Origin: Candidatus Thorarchaeota archaeon
GTDB taxonomy: Archaea > Asgardarchaeota > Thorarchaeia > Thorarchaeales > Thorarchaeaceae
Assembly: GCA_048884965.1 (NCBI GenBank)
Contig: JBHLQH010000022.1
Location: 1 to 56,909 of the forward strand
Direction of reading: 5' to 3'
DNA length: 56,909 nt
The notes beneath the pieces were generated by a model, which was not told the origin of the DNA, made no database searches, and saw only the letters and a program-made list of their open reading frames with translations. This document shows positions 1 to 28,186 of the stretch, piece after piece. Every line of letters begins with the position of its first letter. The stretch's first letter is position 1. A program made the position numbers and the translations under genes.

Positions 1-82
1 TCGAAATCATGATTGATTCATCGATGGCCATGTTGTGGAACGCATCTTGAGTCGTAAGATCGAGAAACCTAAGTTCGTCCAT
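1..82 (-). CDS. Lipoate-protein ligase / octanoyltransferase (LplA/LipM family), 5' end only; runs off the window
   Basis: Hand translation of the reverse strand from ATG at 82 gives MDELRFLDLTTQDAFHNMAIDESIMIS. The NMAIDE motif is typical of LplA/LipM N-termini. It starts 1 nt after the stop of the radical SAM gene. Not in the ORF track. Confidence 0.8.
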   Translation of the reverse strand, partial: MDELRFLDLTTQDAFHNMAIDESIMIS

Positions 83-83
83 T

Positions 84-1064
84 TTATTTTACCAACCCTG
101 ATTCGCTTAATGCCTGCTCACATTCTTCTTCGGATAATTGCCTAGGATAGTTATACATTGGCCCCCGAGGTCTCTCGTTATAATATGGTCGGTTACATCC
201 TGGGCATCCTGACACTTGAAACGCGACTCCGGACGAAAGCAGGGTTCTGAGTTCTTTTTCATCTTTGGCGAATGCAATCTTTCCTAACGCATCGATAAAG
301 ACCTCTTCTTTGGATACTTTGCCCCGAGTCATAAGATTCCTCAGAATTTGAACTCGTCTATACCTTCCTAGGTCTGGCTGAGGTATCTTTTCAAAATTTG
401 TACCTTCGACAGGAGTAAATGCAAATAATCCGACACGTACAGCAAGATCCTGCATATCGAAGAGGAACTTCACTATTTCATCTTCCGATTCACCCATTCC
501 TACTATCAGATGAGTCGTAACATTGTCTTTGCCGAAAATGGTTTGCGCTTCTTTGATTGCAGCGATGTGACCTTCCCACGTATACCGAGAATTTCGTTCG
601 TTACCTTTTACTTTATCAAAAAGTGATGGAGTACAGGCATCGATGGCAATTCCCATATTGTCAACTCCTGCATCCCGTAATCTTATCATATCCAGCGTGG
701 ACACAGGATGAATGCAAACAGATACTCTTGCTCCAACGGCTCTTTTTGCAGCAAGAACTAGTTGAATGACATCTTCGACGACACCCGGATAATTCAACGA
801 TTGGATACAGACACGCTTGAAATCTTTATTCTGGGCTAGTTTTTCTGCTATCTCATCTAGCTTGAATTGCGGCCATCCTATCCGTGATAGAAGTTCAGGA
901 TTAGATTCACTGCTGGATGCCTGTGGGCAGAAAGAGCAGTTTGCTGTACATCCTCCATCATGATATGTCATCAGGAATGCAGTAGTAAAATTCTCTAAGA
1001 ATGGTCCAGATTCTAATCCTAACTTCATTGCAGTGCCTAGCGAAATCCTCACATACTCAACCAA
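84..1064 (-). CDS. lipS2: Radical SAM protein, archaeal lipoyl synthase component LipS2-like (biotin synthase-like)
   Basis: CxxxCxxC motif (CTANCSFC) and C-terminal SGCPGCNRPYYNERP, matching the TxGCPxC(N/D)RP signature of LipS2. Adjacent to a lipoate ligase. The track start (1235) overlaps the opposite-strand gene, so TTG at 1064 (LVEYVRISLGTA) is preferred. Confidence 0.75.
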   Translation of the reverse strand: MVEYVRISLGTAMKLGLESGPFLENFTTAFLMTYHDGGCTANCSFCPQASSSESNPELLSRIGWPQFKLDEIAEKLAQNKDFKRVCIQSLNYPGVVEDVIQLVLAAKRAVGARVSVCIHPVSTLDMIRLRDAGVDNMGIAIDACTPSLFDKVKGNERNSRYTWEGHIAAIKEAQTIFGKDNVTTHLIVGMGESEDEIVKFLFDMQDLAVRVGLFAFTPVEGTNFEKIPQPDLGRYRRVQILRNLMTRGKVSKEEVFIDALGKIAFAKDEKELRTLLSSGVAFQVSGCPGCNRPYYNERPRGPMYNYPRQLSEEECEQALSESGLVK

Positions 1065-1169
1065 TTGAATCGATGTTTCCTTGTGATATCCTGCCTTAAT
1101 GTTGTCGTTCTGTGACAAGTCACTACAAAGAACTATTAGTAGCGTAAGGTATCGTAGTCTTGGTGTAGC

Positions 1170-1463
1170 GTGGTGAAGGCAAGTCAAAGAGTGAAGACAT
1201 TCGCGACGGAGCAAAAGATGCTCCTTTTCACACAAATTGCGATATTGATAGGGTTAGCTGTGCAGGTCGGTATCTTCTTCTCATTACTGATTTGGGGTCG
1301 TCCTCCAGCATCCGAAACAGAGCTTGTATTGCAGTTCTTTCTGACAGCGGCACTTTGGATTTTCACTATCAATTTCAGTACGATCCTGTTCTGGTGGGTT
1401 TCAAGGCTTGGTCCTTGGACTATAGCTATTGATGAACCTGAACAACCCGTGAATCCTACGTGA
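1170..1463 (+). CDS. Small hypothetical membrane protein (2 TM)
   Basis: 97-aa ORF with two long hydrophobic segments; fills the gap between two minus-strand genes. Confidence 0.6.
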   Translation: MVKASQRVKTFATEQKMLLFTQIAILIGLAVQVGIFFSLLIWGRPPASETELVLQFFLTAALWIFTINFSTILFWWVSRLGPWTIAIDEPEQPVNPT

Positions 1464-4566: not shown

Positions 4567-5496
4567 TTACTTGTGATAGTATGCAAATCCTGTCAGGATA
4601 GCCTTCACAATATCTCTTGCAGCGATTCCAGTGATTTGAGAGGTGTCTAGCATAGGGTTGAACTCGACAATATCTACGTAGCGAACCTTCTTTGCTTGAA
4701 AGCACAGATCGAGAATCTCAACAAGCTGAGTCATTGTTAGGCCACCTGATTCAGGATGTGAAATTCCTGGGACAATATGCGGTTGAAGAACATCTAGATC
4801 AATTGAGATGTAAAGATGGTTAACTTTCTTAGATATCTTATCTATGCTCATTTGAAATTCTGAATGGGTTCCTGGACATACATTCCTTCCCAATTCTTTC
4901 CTTTGCTCCGGTGTAATGCATCTTAGATCATAACCAACAATATTCTCATGCTCGACAAGTTTCTCTTCAACGATACGTTTCATTGTGGATGCATGTGAGA
5001 GTGTCATTCCACCCATATCATCATAGTAGTCAGCATGAGCATCAAGATAGACCAGACCTATTTCCTCATTATTTCCTTTTTTTATGCCTTTGACTAGAGG
5101 ATATGTGACAAAATGGTCTCCACCTAGGAACAACAGTCGAGATTGCTCTTTGGCAAGAATTGATGCAGCCTCTGAGATGTGAATTGCTACAGACTCAGGT
5201 AGCTGGACGCCAAGTTCAAGGTCGCCCATATCTTCTATGGTCATAGCTCTTGTAAGAGGGTCCTCCAGTGTTTTATTTGATGAAGTCAGAGACAGAGGGA
5301 AACTATGAGACCGTTCACCATCCGTCGCCTTTCGAATTGCATCCGGCGCAAATCTTGCACCGGGAGTATGACTAGATGTGATATCATATGGAATACCTAG
5401 TATGCCAACATCGGGATTACCCTCAGAAGGCTCTGGTATACCAAAGAACTTTCTCGATGGTCGTAGATATCCATTCAATGAATCTCTTAATGGCAT
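4567..5496 (-). CDS. speB: Agmatinase (ureohydrolase family)
   Basis: GIPYD..S..PGARFAP, GGDHFVTYP, DAHAD, SIDLDVL.P...PG...PE.GG and DIVEFNP metal-binding motifs. Confidence 0.85.
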   Translation of the reverse strand: MPLRDSLNGYLRPSRKFFGIPEPSEGNPDVGILGIPYDITSSHTPGARFAPDAIRKATDGERSHSFPLSLTSSNKTLEDPLTRAMTIEDMGDLELGVQLPESVAIHISEAASILAKEQSRLLFLGGDHFVTYPLVKGIKKGNNEEIGLVYLDAHADYYDDMGGMTLSHASTMKRIVEEKLVEHENIVGYDLRCITPEQRKELGRNVCPGTHSEFQMSIDKISKKVNHLYISIDLDVLQPHIVPGISHPESGGLTMTQLVEILDLCFQAKKVRYVDIVEFNPMLDTSQITGIAARDIVKAILTGFAYYHK

Positions 5497-19997: not shown

Positions 19998-20051
19998 CTC
20001 TCTTTAAGGAAGATGCTATTGGCCGCTCATATTGAAACTGCTTGAGGATTG

Positions 20052-20912
20052 ATGACACTGACCACTCCACGTACTATCGCTAAGACTTGGCAAGGAAGAC
20101 TGACACAGGATGGAGCTGGAGTCTCCCTTAAGCGTGTCTTTGGTTATTATGAAGTACGAGAAATGGATCCATTTTTACTGCTAGATTTCTTTGGCTCTAA
20201 TAATCCAGAAGATTACATAGCTGGATTTCCATGGCATCCACATAGAGGAATTGAAACTATCACATACATGCTTGAAGGGAGGGTTCGTCATGGTGATAGT
20301 CTGGGAAACAAGGGCGTGATTGGTCCTGGTGATGTGCAGTGGATGACCGCAGGCTCTGGTATCATCCATGAAGAGATGCCTGAGAGAAATGGTGGTAGGA
20401 TGGCAGGATTCCAATTATGGGCCAATCTACCTGCAAAGGATAAAATGATGAATCCGAGATACAGGGATATAACCAACTCGGATATCCCAGAAGTCAAACC
20501 TGATGTAAAAGTCAGTGTTAAGATAATAGCTGGAACCGTCAATGGTACAGCTGGACCTGTGCAAGATGTTGTCATTGAACCACAATATCTTGATGTGAAA
20601 ATCTCTCCAAATGGGGATTTCACTCATATGATTCAAAGTGGACACACAGCTTTTGCATTCATCTTTGAAGGCAGTGGTACTTTCAGCTCTGAAGAAGCAA
20701 AGACGATTTCTGCCGAAACACTGGTATTATTCTCGAATGGGGAAACCATTAAAGTTACTGCATCTGATGAGGGAGTTCGCTTTCTGCTTGTTTCAGGTCG
20801 ACCCCTTAAGGAACCTATTGCATGGCGTGGACCAATTGTGATGAATACCGATGAGGAGCTCCAACTGGCATTCACTGAATATCGACAAGGGACTTTTCTA
20901 AAGAGAACCTAG
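20052..20912 (+). CDS. Pirin family protein
   Basis: DPFLLLD, GFPWHPHRGIETITY, GDVQWMTAGSGIIHEE, FQLWANLP and GPIVMNT motifs. Confidence 0.95.
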   Translation: MTLTTPRTIAKTWQGRLTQDGAGVSLKRVFGYYEVREMDPFLLLDFFGSNNPEDYIAGFPWHPHRGIETITYMLEGRVRHGDSLGNKGVIGPGDVQWMTAGSGIIHEEMPERNGGRMAGFQLWANLPAKDKMMNPRYRDITNSDIPEVKPDVKVSVKIIAGTVNGTAGPVQDVVIEPQYLDVKISPNGDFTHMIQSGHTAFAFIFEGSGTFSSEEAKTISAETLVLFSNGETIKVTASDEGVRFLLVSGRPLKEPIAWRGPIVMNTDEELQLAFTEYRQGTFLKRT

Positions 20913-20927
20913 ATCCAGTTGCCTGAC

Positions 20928-21398
20928 CTAGATTGACTTCACCGAAGAGGTTTGCTTGCTGAGAAATAGCCAGCCGCCTGCAAGGATTATCATTCCAATG
21001 AGGACAAATGATGCGCCAATTGACTGAAGGACTTCTGATGCTGGTGCAATTGAACGGCCAACAAGTCCTCCGATTATCGAGACAATTCCTCCGACCATTG
21101 CATACTTACTATTCTTTGTGTTCGGATGCTCAATGATAAGTTCTTCTGCGTTAGAACGGATGCTTGGTGCCTTTGACATTTTGATATCGGATTTGAAGAA
21201 TCGTGTTCGATCTTCAGTGATATATCCATGCAGAATTCCCAAACCGATTAGATTTTCAATTTGGGTGATGATAGATTCCTCATCTGTTTCTAATGCACTC
21301 GCAATCATCTGAATAGAGCTGACTCCACTTGTTTCTAGGAATTCGAGCAGTGGGTCGTATTCCTGAGATGTCTGGTTTGTTTCTGTGCTGGTAATCAT
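20928..21398 (-). CDS. PCI/winged-helix-like domain protein with two C-terminal TM helices
   Basis: SIQMIASALETDEESIITQIENLIGLGILHGYITEDRTRFF resembles PCI-type wHTH ends. Hydrophobic hairpin at the C-terminus. Confidence 0.55.
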   Translation of the reverse strand: MITSTETNQTSQEYDPLLEFLETSGVSSIQMIASALETDEESIITQIENLIGLGILHGYITEDRTRFFKSDIKMSKAPSIRSNAEELIIEHPNTKNSKYAMVGGIVSIIGGLVGRSIAPASEVLQSIGASFVLIGMIILAGGWLFLSKQTSSVKSI

Positions 21399-21600
21399 CT
21401 TGTATCATCGTTAAAGGTACTATAACTGAATATAATATACAGCCACTATTAGAGGACACTTCAAAGGGTCACAAGTAGAGGACTCAATCTGTGACTTTTA
21501 CAATCATGAATATCTTCAATTCTGGGTATAGGCTGCTCTATAGTTACGCTTATTTTTGGGACAGTTGGAAGCTCTCTAGGTATTATGGAGCTCACTAATA

Positions 21601-22017
21601 ATGTCTGATGTCATATGGAATGATAGTTTGTCTGTCAATATTGAATTGATAGATACCCAACATAAGGAATTGATAAAAAGAATAAGCAGCATATCTGAGG
21701 CAGTCGATTCACACCAAAGCCCAGAAGTTGTCTTGAACACTCTTAGTTTTATGAGTGAGTACACAGATTTCCATTTTTCTACTGAGGAGAAGCATATGAA
21801 GGAGCAGAATTATCCTGCTATCGATCTTCATCTGAAGCAGCATGAGGAATTCAAAGCAATGGTAAAAACGATGATTACCGATTTTCAAGAGGAAGGTCCA
21901 ACTCCTGCACTTGGCAAGTCAATCAATACTTATCTTATGAATTGGCTAGTGGATCACATCAAAAGCATCGATACTAAATTCGGAGAGTTTCTCAGGAGCA
22001 AGGGTTTTTCACAATGA
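21601..22017 (+). CDS. Bacteriohemerythrin (single domain)
   Basis: W.DSLSV....IDTQH, HFSTEE..M....YP....H...H and WLVDHI...D iron ligands. Confidence 0.93.
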   Translation: MSDVIWNDSLSVNIELIDTQHKELIKRISSISEAVDSHQSPEVVLNTLSFMSEYTDFHFSTEEKHMKEQNYPAIDLHLKQHEEFKAMVKTMITDFQEEGPTPALGKSINTYLMNWLVDHIKSIDTKFGEFLRSKGFSQ

Positions 22018-22159: not shown

Positions 22160-22543
22160 ATGGTTGTGGGTATTTCGATATTGTTGGATTTCTCTGGTGT
22201 GGTAGATGAGAGATTTCATTGCGACCAGGTTTGGAGAGATCTGATAGGCAGATTGATCCAGATGGGTGGAATGAAGATGCTACACTTGGCATCCCATCAA
22301 TTTTCTTCCGTAAAGCAAAAGGAATTGGCAGATGAGAGAAACCTCCAAACAGGAGGAACAACGGCCTTTGCACTTCTTTCAGAGAGTCATATCAGTGTCC
22401 ATACTTGGCCTGAATTCAAGAAGGTAGTCATTGACATTTTCACTTGTGGTCCAACGATAAGGCTAGATGATATGATTGAGTATCTTAGAGAGCATATCCC
22501 GCACGAAAACCTAGTCGTAACACGATTTGAGAGAGGGGAATAA
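22160..22543 (+). CDS. speD: S-adenosylmethionine decarboxylase proenzyme (class 1b pyruvoyl, SpeD/SpeH family)
   Basis: GGTTAFALLSESHISVHTWPE self-cleavage motif (E|SH), DIFTCG and C-terminal ERG. Confidence 0.85.
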   Translation: MVVGISILLDFSGVVDERFHCDQVWRDLIGRLIQMGGMKMLHLASHQFSSVKQKELADERNLQTGGTTAFALLSESHISVHTWPEFKKVVIDIFTCGPTIRLDDMIEYLREHIPHENLVVTRFERGE

Positions 22544-22551
22544 GTCTGATA

Positions 22552-24531
22552 TTGCGAAAATTACTTGTGATGTTAATACTGGGCACGATGGTGATCAGTA
22601 TGCCATTTTGTGTTTCAGGCGAAATGGTCTTTGAAGAAACTGATTCATTTTCTGTGGTCTTTCATACAAGCTTGACAGGTACTTCTGGAGATTATAATGG
22701 ATACACAGAGGAGGAACATGAAGAGAGAACCTATGAGGTATCATCTATCTCTGGAGACCAAGTCACATGGATCATGGATCGAAGGTATAGCTATACTGAC
22801 ACTGATGGTAATTCATTCGACCAAGAGGGCTCGTATCGCTTCTCTCTGAATTCTGTAACAAGACAGTATATCAATTCTACATATGATGCTCCTTCATCGT
22901 ATCTGGATTACTACACTTTTGATTATATTTGGTTCCGGATTGATCCGGACACTCCCATTGACTCTCAGGTGACTATACTTGGAAATGAGTACACGGTCAT
23001 TGGACTAACTACAATCTTCGTTGACTTGATTTCCGCAGTGGATGTAATTGAGCTGAGAGCTACAAATGTACAGCAATACATCCTCAATGATGAATATGAC
23101 CCTGATGGCATGCTTTCGATCACCTTCACTGATTCCTACTATTTCGATCCTACAACAGGTTACTTCGTGCATGAAGTATGGTCAGCACGTGGAACGACCT
23201 CAGTAGGTAACTTCGATTGGTATGAAACAGGCTACCTTACTGAATCAAGCTATGTCCTGCAACAGAATGCTGGTCAATCCCTATTTAGAATGCTGCTATT
23301 CATTGGAGCAATTCTGGGTGTGGGCTTGATATTTGCCGCTGCCAATGATGCATTGAAACGAGGCTATCAAAAATCTGTGATGCAAGCCATCAGAATCATG
23401 GCAGGTGAAATAAAGCCTCCAATGATTGAGGGACAGAAAGTAGCTCCAATGCTTTGGAATCCATTGACTATTAGTTACCAAAATCTAATTGAACGCAGCC
23501 CAGATGTGCAATACACGACGCTACAATCGGGAGTTTACATTGCTATCAATCCTGATAACACCATAGCTATTGTGGATACTCAAACAAATCCCCGATTCAA
23601 GAATTTAGTTTTTGATTTCGAAGAGACAAGTTTGGAGCTTCTCTACAAGCTAGCTCTAGGTACAATCAATCCAGATACTGTCGAGTATCAGGAAGTCATT
23701 ACAAGAATTCAGGATGTAAAAGATTACCTGCAATCTTCGGATGCAGTGACACCGCCAGACGGTCATAGTCTATTCATCTTCAACCAGATTGATAGCAATC
23801 GACTCCAAACAATACCTTTGGAGTATGACGAGATAGCAACCCTTCTTTCTCGAAGGAAGATACTTGATTACTCGTTGGGGCAGGCACCTTTGACACCAAG
23901 TTCTCACCTATTGAAGATGAATCACGTTCTAAAACATCAACCCAGTAGAGTCTTACTTGTGGGGGATGATGATCTACTATCCATTTCATTAGCGAGGCGT
24001 CAGATCGAGGTTACACTGATCGAGGTCGATCCTTATACATGTGCAATGATTGCCTTAATCGCTCATGAAGAGAATCTGAATATTCGGGTTCATCAACTTG
24101 ATCTTCGAGCTGCACTTCCATTTATAGAGGAGGAATTCGATCTTTTTGTTGCGGACCCTGATTTTACAATTGAAGCCTTCGCCCTATTTCTCTCACGTGG
24201 ATTATCATTACTAAGAATTGGCGGCATAGGTCTCATTAACTTTCAGGATACACATTCGCAGAGATACAAAGCACATTTTCTCCTTGATCAGCTAAATGTT
24301 GAAATCATTGAAGAAGCGAAAGAGCGCTGGCACTATGCAATCATACGTAATCAGACAAGTTCGACCTATCATGGCAAATACGCTCCTGTAACCTATAGTC
24401 ATGATGTAAGACTATTAATTGCTCCATATTCATCAGTCATGTTCACAGTTCAAAAGACTGAAGGAACGCGACTTGTTCTAGAAGCGAATGAGTCACTGAA
24501 GGGTGTGGAGTCTGTTATCTACGACTTCTAG
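22552..24531 (+). CDS. Single-pass membrane protein: signal peptide, extracellular beta-rich domain, TM, and cytoplasmic BpsA/DUF43-like (branched-chain polyamine synthase) aminopropyltransferase domain
   Basis: Signal peptide about aa 1-23; TM about aa 244-264 (nt 23281-23343). The C-terminal domain has R...DYSLGQAPLTP, RVLLVGDDDLLSISLA (GDDD at nt 23962-23973), IEVD, DLRAALP...FDLFVADP, FLSRGLSLL and PYSSVMF, co-linear with BpsA. Confidence 0.78.
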   Translation: MRKLLVMLILGTMVISMPFCVSGEMVFEETDSFSVVFHTSLTGTSGDYNGYTEEEHEERTYEVSSISGDQVTWIMDRRYSYTDTDGNSFDQEGSYRFSLNSVTRQYINSTYDAPSSYLDYYTFDYIWFRIDPDTPIDSQVTILGNEYTVIGLTTIFVDLISAVDVIELRATNVQQYILNDEYDPDGMLSITFTDSYYFDPTTGYFVHEVWSARGTTSVGNFDWYETGYLTESSYVLQQNAGQSLFRMLLFIGAILGVGLIFAAANDALKRGYQKSVMQAIRIMAGEIKPPMIEGQKVAPMLWNPLTISYQNLIERSPDVQYTTLQSGVYIAINPDNTIAIVDTQTNPRFKNLVFDFEETSLELLYKLALGTINPDTVEYQEVITRIQDVKDYLQSSDAVTPPDGHSLFIFNQIDSNRLQTIPLEYDEIATLLSRRKILDYSLGQAPLTPSSHLLKMNHVLKHQPSRVLLVGDDDLLSISLARRQIEVTLIEVDPYTCAMIALIAHEENLNIRVHQLDLRAALPFIEEEFDLFVADPDFTIEAFALFLSRGLSLLRIGGIGLINFQDTHSQRYKAHFLLDQLNVEIIEEAKERWHYAIIRNQTSSTYHGKYAPVTYSHDVRLLIAPYSSVMFTVQKTEGTRLVLEANESLKGVESVIYDF

Positions 24532-24550: not shown

Positions 24551-25039
24551 GTGGTAGCAGATAGAGATGGGTTCGTGTCATTTGGAATTGCACAGTCCTT
24601 CAATGCTCCCACGATTCTCGAATATGCAGAACGCTTGGGTTTACATGATATTAGAGAGTGGGTCACAGTAGATGCATTGCAAAGCTTCTTGGACATGGAG
24701 AAATGGATTGCATATGCAGCCACCCTAGAAACGCCTGAATCTGATATTGTTGGGATTGCAGTGATGGGTATTGAGGAGGAAGGCAGATTATGGATCGAAA
24801 CTCTCGTTACAGATCCCCGCTATAGAAGAAAAGGGATTGCAACAGAACTCTGCAATTCAATGGTAGAATATGGTAGAAGACATGGATTTAGAGTGATATT
24901 CGTTGATCTAGATGACGATAATATCCCAGCCTATAGATTCTACAAGCAATTTGGTTTTGAGAATGCAGGTCGGATATCTAGGTACTACTATGATTCCTCA
25001 ACAGCAATAATCCTTGCCAAGAACCTACCCGAGGATTAA
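24551..25039 (+). CDS. GNAT family N-acetyltransferase (RimI/PaiA-like)
   Basis: WIETLVTDPRYRRKGIATEL acetyl-CoA motif A and N.PAYRFYKQFGF. GTG at 24551 is preceded by AGGAGG (24536-24541). Confidence 0.88.
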   Translation: MVADRDGFVSFGIAQSFNAPTILEYAERLGLHDIREWVTVDALQSFLDMEKWIAYAATLETPESDIVGIAVMGIEEEGRLWIETLVTDPRYRRKGIATELCNSMVEYGRRHGFRVIFVDLDDDNIPAYRFYKQFGFENAGRISRYYYDSSTAIILAKNLPED

Positions 25040-26350: not shown

Positions 26351-28186
26351 TTGGATGCATTGAGTCGAATTATGTCAAAATCATTCATAATGGTCATGAT
26401 TTTGATTCTTCTTCTCGGATTGAAAGGGAACGACGTAGTGAGTGCAGAAAACGTCGAACACACATTGGATAGTGACGTTCTTTCTACGAATGCTAGTTCT
26501 TGGTTATCAGGGTGGAAATACAGAAAGGCTCACAATTTGACAGGCGCTCAAGGAGCAGGAATAGACTATCAGGTAAAGATACTTGTCAACTATGGCGATG
26601 GTATAGATTCAGGATTCAGTGTCTATTGCGATGAGCTATGTAATGTGGATTTTAGTGATATTAGGTTCACAGGAAGCGATCAACAAACAGTACTAGATTA
26701 CTGGATTGAGAACATGACTCCTTCCGATAACGCAATAATTTGGTTGAAAATAGCTGAGAATCTGGACGAGGCAGTTACGATCTACATGTATTATGGTAAT
26801 CACTTTGCTACTTCGTTAAGTAATGGCATTGCGGTCTGTGATTTCTTTGAGGATTTCACAGCTCCTATCAATACCACAAAATGGAATCACACAGATCCGA
26901 TGCCAACATTTGAGGAAGGTATTGGGACCTTTACTATTGAATCTGGCAAGACATGGGATTTTCTTTCTGTAGTTTCAACAGAGGAATTACCACGTCGAGG
27001 ATATCGACTTAGAACCCGAATGAGGTTCAATGCCTTCGACGACTTCACTGGAAGATATTCTTACTTTGGATTTGGGTATTCAAATATAGGAACATATGGA
27101 ATAAATGGTCTCATATGTATTGATATTGATGATTATGACGCATCACTTGTATTCCACTCTGTTGGTTCCGACGATTTCGATTTCTATGGCTCAATTGGTG
27201 ATGTAAATATCGAGTACAAAGAATATGAGATCCTTGCTCAACCAATGGGAACGGTAAAATTAGGTTGTGGAGGAGATTTTGTTACTGGCACTCTATCATA
27301 TGAGATTCCGTTTCGTCCTTCAGTAGGCATTCATGTAAATGGGGAGTACAATGCAAACCAAATCACCACTAGATATGATTATTTCTATGTTATGAAATGG
27401 GTTCCAAATGAGCCAAGTCATGGAGCTTGGGGACTCATGGCTACTTCTCCCTATATTTCAGACCATATTCCACCACAGGTCAGCTCCCCGAGTGACATCA
27501 ATTTAGAGGCAGGGAACTTTGAATCCTACATACATTGGACATTGGTAGAACAGAATCCCTATCTATGCCAGATCTATCTGGATGGAGTGAATGTCTTTGA
27601 GCATCCTTGGGAAGGTTCTCCAATGGAGATGTATCTTTCGACAGATGATGTCGCATTGTTGCTAGGAGAGCATAACTATACAATCGTAGCGATTGATTCC
27701 AACCTTAACTCAGGATCAGATCAGGTTAATGTAATCGTTTCAGATACTCAGGCACCAATAATCAATGAACCCAGCGATCTTCAGATTGTTGAAGGTTCTT
27801 CTACTAGAATTATCTGGAGTATCACAGACGCCCTTCCATTGGAATATACGGTTCATAGAGATTCGATTCTAATCCAATCAGGTCCGCTCCAATCACCTAT
27901 CATTATTGTGGGACTCTCCTCCCTAGAAGTGGGTAGCTACACATTCACGATTACGGCATTTGACAGTTCAGGGAATAACGCGACAGATAGTGTAGATGTT
28001 CAAGTTGTAACAAGGATGCCATCTTCTGATACTGATAGCAATTCCAATACACACAATCCCTGGCTATCATTCGATCTTCAAATGGAAACTGTGTTGATGA
28101 TCGGATTGGGATTCGCGATAATTGGTGCAGGGTGTTTGCTCTTTAGAAGTAGTTCCTCAGAAGATTATATCATAAGCAACTATTGA
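26351..28186 (+). CDS. DUF2341 domain surface protein with C-terminal Ig-like repeats and TM anchor
   Basis: WLSGWKYRK, DFSDIRFT......LDYWIE......A.IW.KI.......IYMYYGN (DUF2341). Two D..PP..S.P.D Ig-like repeats. C-terminal TM. Confidence 0.82.
   Translation: MDALSRIMSKSFIMVMILILLLGLKGNDVVSAENVEHTLDSDVLSTNASSWLSGWKYRKAHNLTGAQGAGIDYQVKILVNYGDGIDSGFSVYCDELCNVDFSDIRFTGSDQQTVLDYWIENMTPSDNAIIWLKIAENLDEAVTIYMYYGNHFATSLSNGIAVCDFFEDFTAPINTTKWNHTDPMPTFEEGIGTFTIESGKTWDFLSVVSTEELPRRGYRLRTRMRFNAFDDFTGRYSYFGFGYSNIGTYGINGLICIDIDDYDASLVFHSVGSDDFDFYGSIGDVNIEYKEYEILAQPMGTVKLGCGGDFVTGTLSYEIPFRPSVGIHVNGEYNANQITTRYDYFYVMKWVPNEPSHGAWGLMATSPYISDHIPPQVSSPSDINLEAGNFESYIHWTLVEQNPYLCQIYLDGVNVFEHPWEGSPMEMYLSTDDVALLLGEHNYTIVAIDSNLNSGSDQVNVIVSDTQAPIINEPSDLQIVEGSSTRIIWSITDALPLEYTVHRDSILIQSGPLQSPIIIVGLSSLEVGSYTFTITAFDSSGNNATDSVDVQVVTRMPSSDTDSNSNTHNPWLSFDLQMETVLMIGLGFAIIGAGCLLFRSSSSEDYIISNY

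Follow-up and report, generated by a model that had tools for sequence, protein, structure and literature searches.

We describe here a gene of Candidatus Thorarchaeota archaeon that encodes a single-pass membrane protein with an outward-facing beta-barrel and an inward-facing aminopropyltransferase of the polyamine type. The gene lies in a stretch of 56,909 nucleotides (contig JBHLQH010000022.1 of GenBank assembly GCA_048884965.1; the whole stretch is called the window below), where it occupies a single open reading frame (ORF) of 659 amino acids at positions 22552-24531 of the forward strand. It is a real and conserved gene. Its catalytic domain belongs to the BpsA superfamily; to our knowledge, enzymes of the BpsA type are otherwise known solely as soluble proteins with which thermophiles make branched polyamines. 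We consider it rather probable that the protein is a membrane-tethered aminopropyltransferase that depends on decarboxylated S-adenosylmethionine (dcSAM) and works with an acetyltransferase of the GNAT family on an amine, the genes together forming a small mobile cassette. The strongest functional evidence is provided by the two flanking genes, for an S-adenosylmethionine decarboxylase (AdoMetDC) and for the GNAT protein, which a preliminary description of this DNA had not used.

What is new is that a BpsA-type catalytic domain has become part of a membrane protein whose large barrel faces outwards, that the gene sits in a three-gene cassette which appears to bring its own dcSAM supply together with an acetyltransferase, and that the cassette occurs sporadically in Asgard archaea and, among mesophilic filamentous cyanobacteria, in a single clade. 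A literature search (using PF01861/DUF43, BpsA with Asgard, and membrane-bound aminopropyltransferase clusters; the DUF43 term mostly retrieved unrelated DUF43xx names) gave no description of the membrane architecture, of the ectodomain family or of the three-gene cassette. The homologues already carry the NCBI label 'bis-aminopropyl spermidine synthase family protein'. The family points to an aminopropylated and acetylated product outside the known ones, and it establishes an ectodomain family, unnamed until now, whose members are coupled again and again to enzymes that modify amines. The carrier strains of Leptolyngbya and Nodosilinea are culturable and the function can therefore be tested directly.

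Architecture and homologues

Homologues were sought in a collection of 5.8 billion clusters. The search returned 31 proteins, nearly all spanning 91-100% of the query, with 38-56% identity; the alignment used throughout contains 23 homologues, also with 38-56% identity. The complete set of parts is present in about 35 cluster representatives. The named sources are metagenome-assembled genomes of Thorarchaeota, Odinarchaeota and Hodarchaeales and three isolate cyanobacteria (Leptolyngbya sp. PCC 6406, Leptolyngbya sp. KIOST-1 and Nodosilinea sp. PGN35). Three homologues of 770-790 amino acids contain the same parts with a longer linker. Shorter entries that might have represented split or soluble forms (for example, P0019, of 373 amino acids) were rejected as gene calls truncated at contig ends; in P0019 the frame is open to the start of the contig, through the transmembrane helix and the end of the ectodomain.

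The ORF begins with a TTG codon 8 nucleotides past the stop codon of the AdoMetDC gene, and a purine-rich GAGAGAGGGGA is located 13 nucleotides 5' of it. The order of parts given in the preliminary description (signal peptide, ectodomain, transmembrane helix, linker and BpsA-like domain, in one ORF) is correct, and all of the strings that it quoted are present: YYFDPTTGYFVHEVW at residues 196-210, GQAPLTP at 443-449, VGDDDLLSISLA at 470-481, DLRAALP at 517-523, FDLFVADP at 529-536 and DPDFT at 535-539, as well as FLSRGL and PYSSVMF.

Residues 1-23 (22552-22620) resemble a signal peptide, as judged from hydropathy and from conservation in the homologues, with an Arg-Lys n-region, a hydrophobic core and VSG before E24, where cleavage is putative. 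Kyte-Doolittle analysis places the core at residues 4-22 and a second hydrophobic segment at 244-262/266. The latter is the single transmembrane helix (residues 244-266, 23281-23349; peak value 2.36), which is followed directly by a stretch containing six Lys or Arg. Both segments are conserved in all 23 aligned homologues. Between them lies the ectodomain (residues 24-243, 22621-23280), identified from an AlphaFold2 model as an antiparallel beta-barrel with a fold similar to those of LmcA and CD36. Its 220 residues carry a net charge of -29, include neither Lys nor Cys and are 17% aromatic. The basic stretch after the helix, the acidic, Lys-free ectodomain, the hydropathy profile and its conservation make it likely that the protein is of type I (N-out/C-in), with the barrel outside and the remainder inside.

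The linker (residues 267-414, 23350-23793) was described earlier as a region with no recognisable motif. The AlphaFold2 model resolves it into a juxtamembrane helix, a low-confidence tether (residues ~284-303; predicted local distance difference test score, pLDDT, ~54) that carries conserved PP and WNPL motifs, and a confidently modelled alpha/beta domain (residues ~300-414; pLDDT 80-95). This domain is without a detectable relative: hhalign matched it neither to the N-terminal domain of BpsA nor to the spacer found in GNAT-fused proteins with the same ectodomain (see below), and language-model and structure searches of the ESM Atlas never gave a TM-score above 0.34.

The catalytic domain

The catalytic domain (residues 415-659, 23794-24528) has a class-I methyltransferase fold of the BpsA type. 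Pfam BpsA_C (PF01861) matches residues 465-642 (E 4.9e-19; 69 bits against a cut-off of 27; profile positions 46-225 of 243). When an AlphaFold model of residues 270-659 (pLDDT 87.8) is compared with solved structures, the best match in the PDB is BpsA 5xnc_A (Z 19.9, root-mean-square deviation (rmsd) 3.6, 230 residues aligned, 24% identity, BpsA residues 91-345). BpsA entries hold ranks 1-6 and the next structures, unrelated methyltransferases, have Z values of 15.5 or less. An hhalign comparison with canonical Asgard BpsA gives 99.4% probability, over the catalytic domain only. The domain is thus a BpsA-superfamily aminopropyltransferase.

The reference enzyme, BpsA (EC 2.5.1.128), is represented by the proteins of Thermococcus kodakarensis (TK1691; Tk-BpsA below) and Thermus thermophilus, with PDB entries 5xnc, 5xnf and 6j27. 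The catalytic fold is shared over nearly its whole length, at a sequence identity of just 20-24%. Residues were mapped on to Tk-BpsA using HMMER and MAFFT alignments. On the donor (dcSAM) side, GDDD (residues 471-474, 23962-23973), E491 and D493 of motif II, D517-L-R519 and D535 (the equivalent of Tk-BpsA D225) are invariant in the 23 homologues, and so is the terminal IYD, which lines up with the beginning of the acidic C-terminal lid of BpsA. The equivalent of Y316, at position 626, is Tyr or, in four homologues, Phe, and an acidic residue at 565/566 matches the position of E259. BpsA and the new family have in common the GDDD motif, the DLR stretch, the D225 equivalent, the Y316-equivalent aromatic residue and the IY-D that starts the lid. 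In Tk-BpsA the GDDD motif (G157-D160) is indispensable for catalysis, Asp159 positions the aminopropyl group of dcSAM and acidic residues at the C-terminus carry that group (PMC12979288, a 2026 review). The preliminary description had taken the Asp of GDDD to be catalytic. The motif is indeed intact; the premise itself is dated in view of these roles.

Other features of BpsA have been lost or altered. DPPET reads DPDFT in this protein, as had been noticed, and D(P/S)DFT across the family. The region of Tk-BpsA Y290 is opposite a gap in one alignment and beside the invariant Y595 in another, and there is a family-specific loop with invariant N600, K609 and Y615. The protein ends in IYDF, with D658 as the one invariant acidic residue, which lines up with the first acid in the canonical IY-DEE tail; the acidic carrier cluster (Tk E339 and D342-E345) is not kept in the alignment, being reduced to this single Asp. 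The canonical N-terminal domain, which in BpsA from related Asgard archaea consists of a winged-helix-like domain and then a CxxC ribbon (~120 amino acids), was not detected by hhalign against 12 canonical Asgard BpsA sequences. When the alignment of the cytoplasmic part of the family was used as query, columns 155-286 paired with template positions 125-261 and the first 154 columns paired with nothing. The earlier claim that the native N-terminal domain has been replaced is thus correct: an unrelated domain of 145 amino acids is found in the place of the winged helix and Cys ribbon.

As it has kept neither the canonical N-terminal domain nor DPPET nor the acidic cluster at the C-terminus, the protein is not a bona fide BpsA but a variant within the BpsA superfamily. 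It is membrane-anchored and carries an ectodomain whereas BpsA is soluble; it occurs in Asgard archaea of sediments and in mesophilic cyanobacteria rather than in thermophiles; and it has an obligatory GNAT partner. No equivalog exists for it in NCBIfam. Judging from the conserved residues, the domain is probably active, its acceptor has probably changed relative to that of BpsA and its mechanism may possibly have changed as well.

The AdoMetDC and GNAT genes

Directly upstream of the membrane protein gene is a gene for a SpeH-type AdoMetDC proenzyme of 127 amino acids (22160-22543, forward strand; PF02675, E 1.1e-21), with the SESH processing motif and HTWPE in its translation. Its score against TIGR03330 is 75.2 bits (cut-off 75.65). 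Directly downstream is the GNAT N-acetyltransferase gene (24551-25039, forward strand; PF00583, E 3.9e-18). Its likely start is the GTG at 24551, preceded at 10 nucleotides by the Shine-Dalgarno-like AAGGAGGG; the longest ORF starts at 24503.

All eight loci examined, from archaea and cyanobacteria alike, have an orthologous GNAT gene as the next gene downstream, and the products share EEEGR-WIE and FVD-D-DN motifs. NCBIfam contains no equivalog for this protein. The predicted complex between GNAT and the cytoplasmic part of the membrane protein scored 0.21 against a mark of 0.32, and is evidence in neither direction. AdoMetDC is directly upstream in most archaeal loci (here and, in our numbering of loci and genomes, in L003, L007, L008, G005, G146, G207, G209 and G212). 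In the family to which the organism belongs (61 genomes) AdoMetDC was found in 10, and all nine strong matches either adjoin a BpsA-type gene or are found on a separate contig in a fragmented genome (G210 and G164).

The organism's own genome (95.7% complete) contains one AdoMetDC gene and one PF01861 gene, together with genes for deoxyhypusine synthase, an agmatinase-family protein and an Orn/Arg-decarboxylase-like protein; no convincing SpeE match was found in it. A Spermine_synth match on contig C9 (L024:1369-2196, reverse strand; 24.9 bits) was rejected as SpeE, as it is a 275-amino-acid methyltransferase of the DPPRF type and probably not an aminopropyltransferase. On gene content, the membrane BpsA-like protein appears to be the sole consumer of dcSAM in the Asgard host.

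Genetic coupling of an aminopropyltransferase to AdoMetDC is also known from SpeE with SpeH/SpeD (PF01564 and PF02675, including fusions), and both systems use a class-I methyltransferase fold with an acidic motif that selects dcSAM. They belong to different families, and PF01564 gives no match here. BpsA is likewise linked genetically to dcSAM synthesis. In genome G204, from the same family as the organism described here, a 504-amino-acid protein (L032:859-2370, reverse strand) consists of BpsA_C (PF01861, E 1e-46) fused to a C-terminal AdoMetDC (PF02675, E 1e-27), a soluble 'Rosetta stone'. Leptolyngbya sp. PCC 6406 encodes a 434-amino-acid AdoMetDC-spermidine synthase fusion (L033:559-1860, reverse strand; PF02675, PF17284 and PF01564), far from its BpsA-GNAT pair. 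As far as can be read from these genes, the cassette in this strain adds to ordinary spermidine synthesis and does not replace it.

Possible sources of an amine were also seen. An agmatinase/arginase-family gene (4597-5412, reverse strand; PF00491, E 1e-60), which could supply putrescine, lies 17 kb upstream of the cassette in the window. In locus L008 a group-II pyridoxal-phosphate-dependent decarboxylase gene (36-1406, reverse strand; PF00282) is close upstream of the cassette and is a possible source of the acceptor amine there.

Distribution and possible transfer

The ectodomain was found in only four of 201 sampled species genomes of the phylum, all of them in the organism's own family, while PF01861 in general is present in 103 genomes of the same sample. 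In a quick maximum-likelihood tree the cyanobacterial sequences form one clade (Shimodaira-Hasegawa-like approximate likelihood ratio test (SH-aLRT) support 98), which branches from within a set of sequences to which named Odin and Thor members belong; support for the nesting branches is 87-94 and many rows are without a taxon label. This nesting suggests that the pair formed by the membrane BpsA gene and the GNAT gene passed from archaea to cyanobacteria. In the same tree the family is separated from canonical Asgard BpsA by a long branch of 3.4 changes per site.

The ectodomain and its reuse

The AlphaFold2 model of residues 24-245 is of high confidence (pLDDT 94.5) and shows some 11 long antiparallel strands arranged in a barrel. 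The highest match, both with Foldseek (E 3e-6) and with VIA (Z 12.4, 194 of 222 residues aligned, rmsd 4.5), is LmcA of Mycobacterium smegmatis (7n3v), followed by CD36/LIMP-2, ApoB/vitellogenin, MTP and LolA-type proteins; outer-membrane barrels appear at similar Z values. The likeness to LmcA and CD36 is therefore a match of fold class, since outer-membrane barrels score nearly as high.

LmcA is described as having a signal peptide, then a periplasmic barrel that encloses internal cavities and a single transmembrane helix at the C-terminus, and is proposed to bind lipid (PMC8972800). Our protein shares with LmcA (MSMEG_0317/Rv0227c) and the CD36/LIMP-2 superfamily the elongated antiparallel beta-barrel, and with LmcA the order of signal peptide, extracytoplasmic barrel and single transmembrane helix. 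Identity to LmcA is ~10%, the barrel here is far more acidic, and the short cytoplasmic tail of LmcA contrasts with ~390 cytoplasmic residues.

In the ESM Atlas the nearest folds are those of archaeal hypothetical proteins (TM-score 0.8-0.9). Clusters of PF11271 (PorA/DUF3068), which include archaeal histidine kinases with a PF11271 outer domain (0.63), reach 0.63-0.64. No PF11271 sequence match was obtained with this protein (E ≤0.1) or with the scanned ectodomain homologues (E ≤0.001-0.01). About 23 positions of the ectodomain do not vary between the Asgard and cyanobacterial members, and Tyr, Trp, Asp and Glu occupy many of them; the net charge of the barrel ranges from -8 to -36 across the family.

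It had been proposed to look for the same ectodomain fused to other output domains, such as kinases and cyclases. A profile search of 1.84 billion representatives retrieved 111 proteins, of which ~20 are of the BpsA type. Among 69 other ectodomain proteins that were scanned, 43 end in a GNAT domain and eight in a zinc ribbon; none carries a kinase or a cyclase. Reuse of the ectodomain is thus confirmed, with different partners from those anticipated. The GNAT-fused forms are mostly of 520-600 amino acids and the zinc-ribbon forms are shorter. The former (for example, P0040 and P0043; one is annotated 'RimI-like' by JGI) have a homologous ectodomain (E 1e-32 to 1e-12 with the family profile), the same signal peptide and transmembrane topology and an association with GNAT. 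They differ in having an unrelated spacer and the GNAT domain fused at the C-terminus, without BpsA_C and without an adjacent AdoMetDC gene. Together, the barrel and transmembrane helix form a reusable module on the extracytoplasmic side, one found again and again with enzymes that modify amines. On two unrelated contigs the genes for such GNAT-fused proteins (551 and 555 amino acids) are followed by two genes without Pfam matches, of ~390-400 and 510-550 amino acids (L021:5001-9524 and L022:5001-9378). The gene order is the same on both, and the ectodomain may thus be at the base of a second conserved operon.

Proposed function and alternative explanations

We propose that the cytoplasmic C-terminal domain of this type-I single-pass protein would act as an active BpsA-superfamily aminopropyltransferase. 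The AdoMetDC, presumably co-transcribed, would supply dcSAM, and the GNAT protein, presumably also co-transcribed, would acetylate a primary amine, either of the acceptor or of the aminopropylated product, so that the two reactions could occur in either order. The three genes would constitute a self-contained, horizontally mobile cassette and an N-acetylated, aminopropylated amine would be made on the cytoplasmic side of the membrane. A common di- or polyamine would be the most likely acceptor; it need not be N4 of spermidine because the acceptor-side residues differ from those of BpsA. The N-terminal half would tether the enzyme to the membrane and probably bind a ligand or cargo on the outer face. 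Alternatively, the barrel might simply anchor the enzyme or bind surface cations.

A number of observations weigh against this proposal. We have found no rationale for an ectodomain on a polyamine-type enzyme. The cyanobacterial and Odin loci have no adjacent AdoMetDC gene (the cyanobacterium encodes one elsewhere). The nearest solved relatives of the GNAT protein are Naa/RimI-type and streptothricin/aminoglycoside acetyltransferases, that is, as much protein N-terminal as small-molecule acetyltransferases, and its substrate could therefore be a protein. Finally, the acceptor-side features of characterised BpsA have changed (DPDFT, the Y290 stretch deleted in the alignment and a single C-terminal Asp) and the reaction could therefore differ from the ping-pong chemistry of BpsA.

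The preliminary description regarded the protein as a new type of single-pass receptor with an aminopropyltransferase output, in which an extracellular ligand bound to the barrel would switch the cytoplasmic enzyme on or off, for example by dimerisation. The architecture and the catalytic class were recognised correctly. The layout is that of a receptor (extracytoplasmic domain, transmembrane helix and cytoplasmic enzyme), the ectodomain with its transmembrane helix has been joined to BpsA_C, GNAT or zinc-ribbon parts, the barrel resembles PF11271 domains that form the extracytoplasmic part of archaeal histidine kinases, and the ~23 invariant residues would fit a conserved, putative binding site. 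The receptor role itself is where the claim falters. HAMP, PAS, GAF, DHp or similar transducer modules are absent (Pfam, E ≤0.1); the segment after the membrane is modelled at low confidence and is probably flexible, which would make it a poor conduit for conformational signals; the partner domains are metabolic transferases and, among the proteins scanned, never kinases or cyclases; and likeness of fold to a sensor domain shows no function. Gating by a ligand would be plausible, yet we regard a true receptor-enzyme as doubtful. A more specific version, in which the barrel would be an extracellular sensor, possibly for polyamines or another cation as the invariant Tyr, Trp, Asp and Glu residues and the strong negative charge would allow, and would gate the aminopropyltransferase and GNAT pair (with the barrel-GNAT family acting likewise), seems to us unlikely. 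If true, it would represent a new class of one-component transmembrane signalling with amine modification as output in place of phosphorylation or a second messenger.

A different role for the barrel would be the handling of lipid on the outside, as part of an envelope or lipid machine in which the enzyme would aminopropylate, and GNAT acetylate, a membrane-embedded acceptor, for example a lipid-linked precursor or the head group of an amino-lipid. The structures closest to the barrel (LmcA, CD36/LIMP-2, ApoB/vitellogenin, MTP and LolA) are of proteins that bind or transfer lipid, and LmcA combines the same membrane topology with proposed lipid binding in an internal cavity. The enzyme is held at the membrane, and the canonical AdoMetDC-spermidine synthase fusion in the cyanobacterial host implies that the cassette does something additional there. 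Nevertheless, this explanation is quite improbable. In the loci examined no flippase, transporter or lipid-synthesis gene is conserved beside the cassette; archaea and cyanobacteria, two groups between which the cassette has moved, have different core lipids; the barrel is strongly acidic; and unrelated outer-membrane barrels attain Z values of 8-12 as well.

Very improbable, in turn, is a pseudoenzyme or a SAM-using methyltransferase with a structural or regulatory role apart from aminopropyl transfer. Such a role would fit the generic methyltransferase matches in Pfam, which are weak (Methyltransf_25, E 0.0011), and the loss of DPPET and of the C-terminal carrier cluster. It is difficult to reconcile with the invariance of GDDD and the other donor-side residues throughout the family, with BpsA as clearly the closest structure, or with the tight and phylogenetically exclusive linkage to AdoMetDC, which is hard to explain without the use of dcSAM.

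An assembly chimera between a surface-protein gene and a BpsA gene, the misjoin whose exclusion had been recommended, is refuted and has a negligible probability: the homologues carry the fusion at full length and not as two separate genes, in more than 30 independent clusters that include a 5.47-Mb scaffold of an isolate cyanobacterium, and contigs that the same study recovered from two further sediment samples run colinear with the window and have no loose ends, one of them bridging AdoMetDC, the ectodomain, the transmembrane helix and the start of the linker.

Neighbouring genes

A hemerythrin-domain gene (21601-22017, forward strand; PF01814, E 2.8e-16) precedes the AdoMetDC gene in the window. 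Its membership of the cassette is uncertain. It is contiguous with the cassette only here and in the closest relative (L007), and not in L003, L005, L008 or L001. In both loci the cassette is preceded by a pirin gene and the hemerythrin gene (20049-22017 in the window and L007:3244-4579). In L007 the hemerythrin gene overlaps the start of the AdoMetDC gene, an arrangement that suggests co-transcription in that lineage.

Two further genes are found close to the cassette. One (20928-21398, reverse strand) encodes a protein of 156 amino acids with a hydrophobic C-terminal half and weak matches to HVO_A0114 (E 0.017), DDRGK (E 0.019) and the RuvB_C winged helix (E 0.1). The other, just downstream (26351-28186, forward strand), encodes a predicted surface protein of 611 amino acids with a signal-like N-terminus, Ig-like repeats and a C-terminal transmembrane helix.

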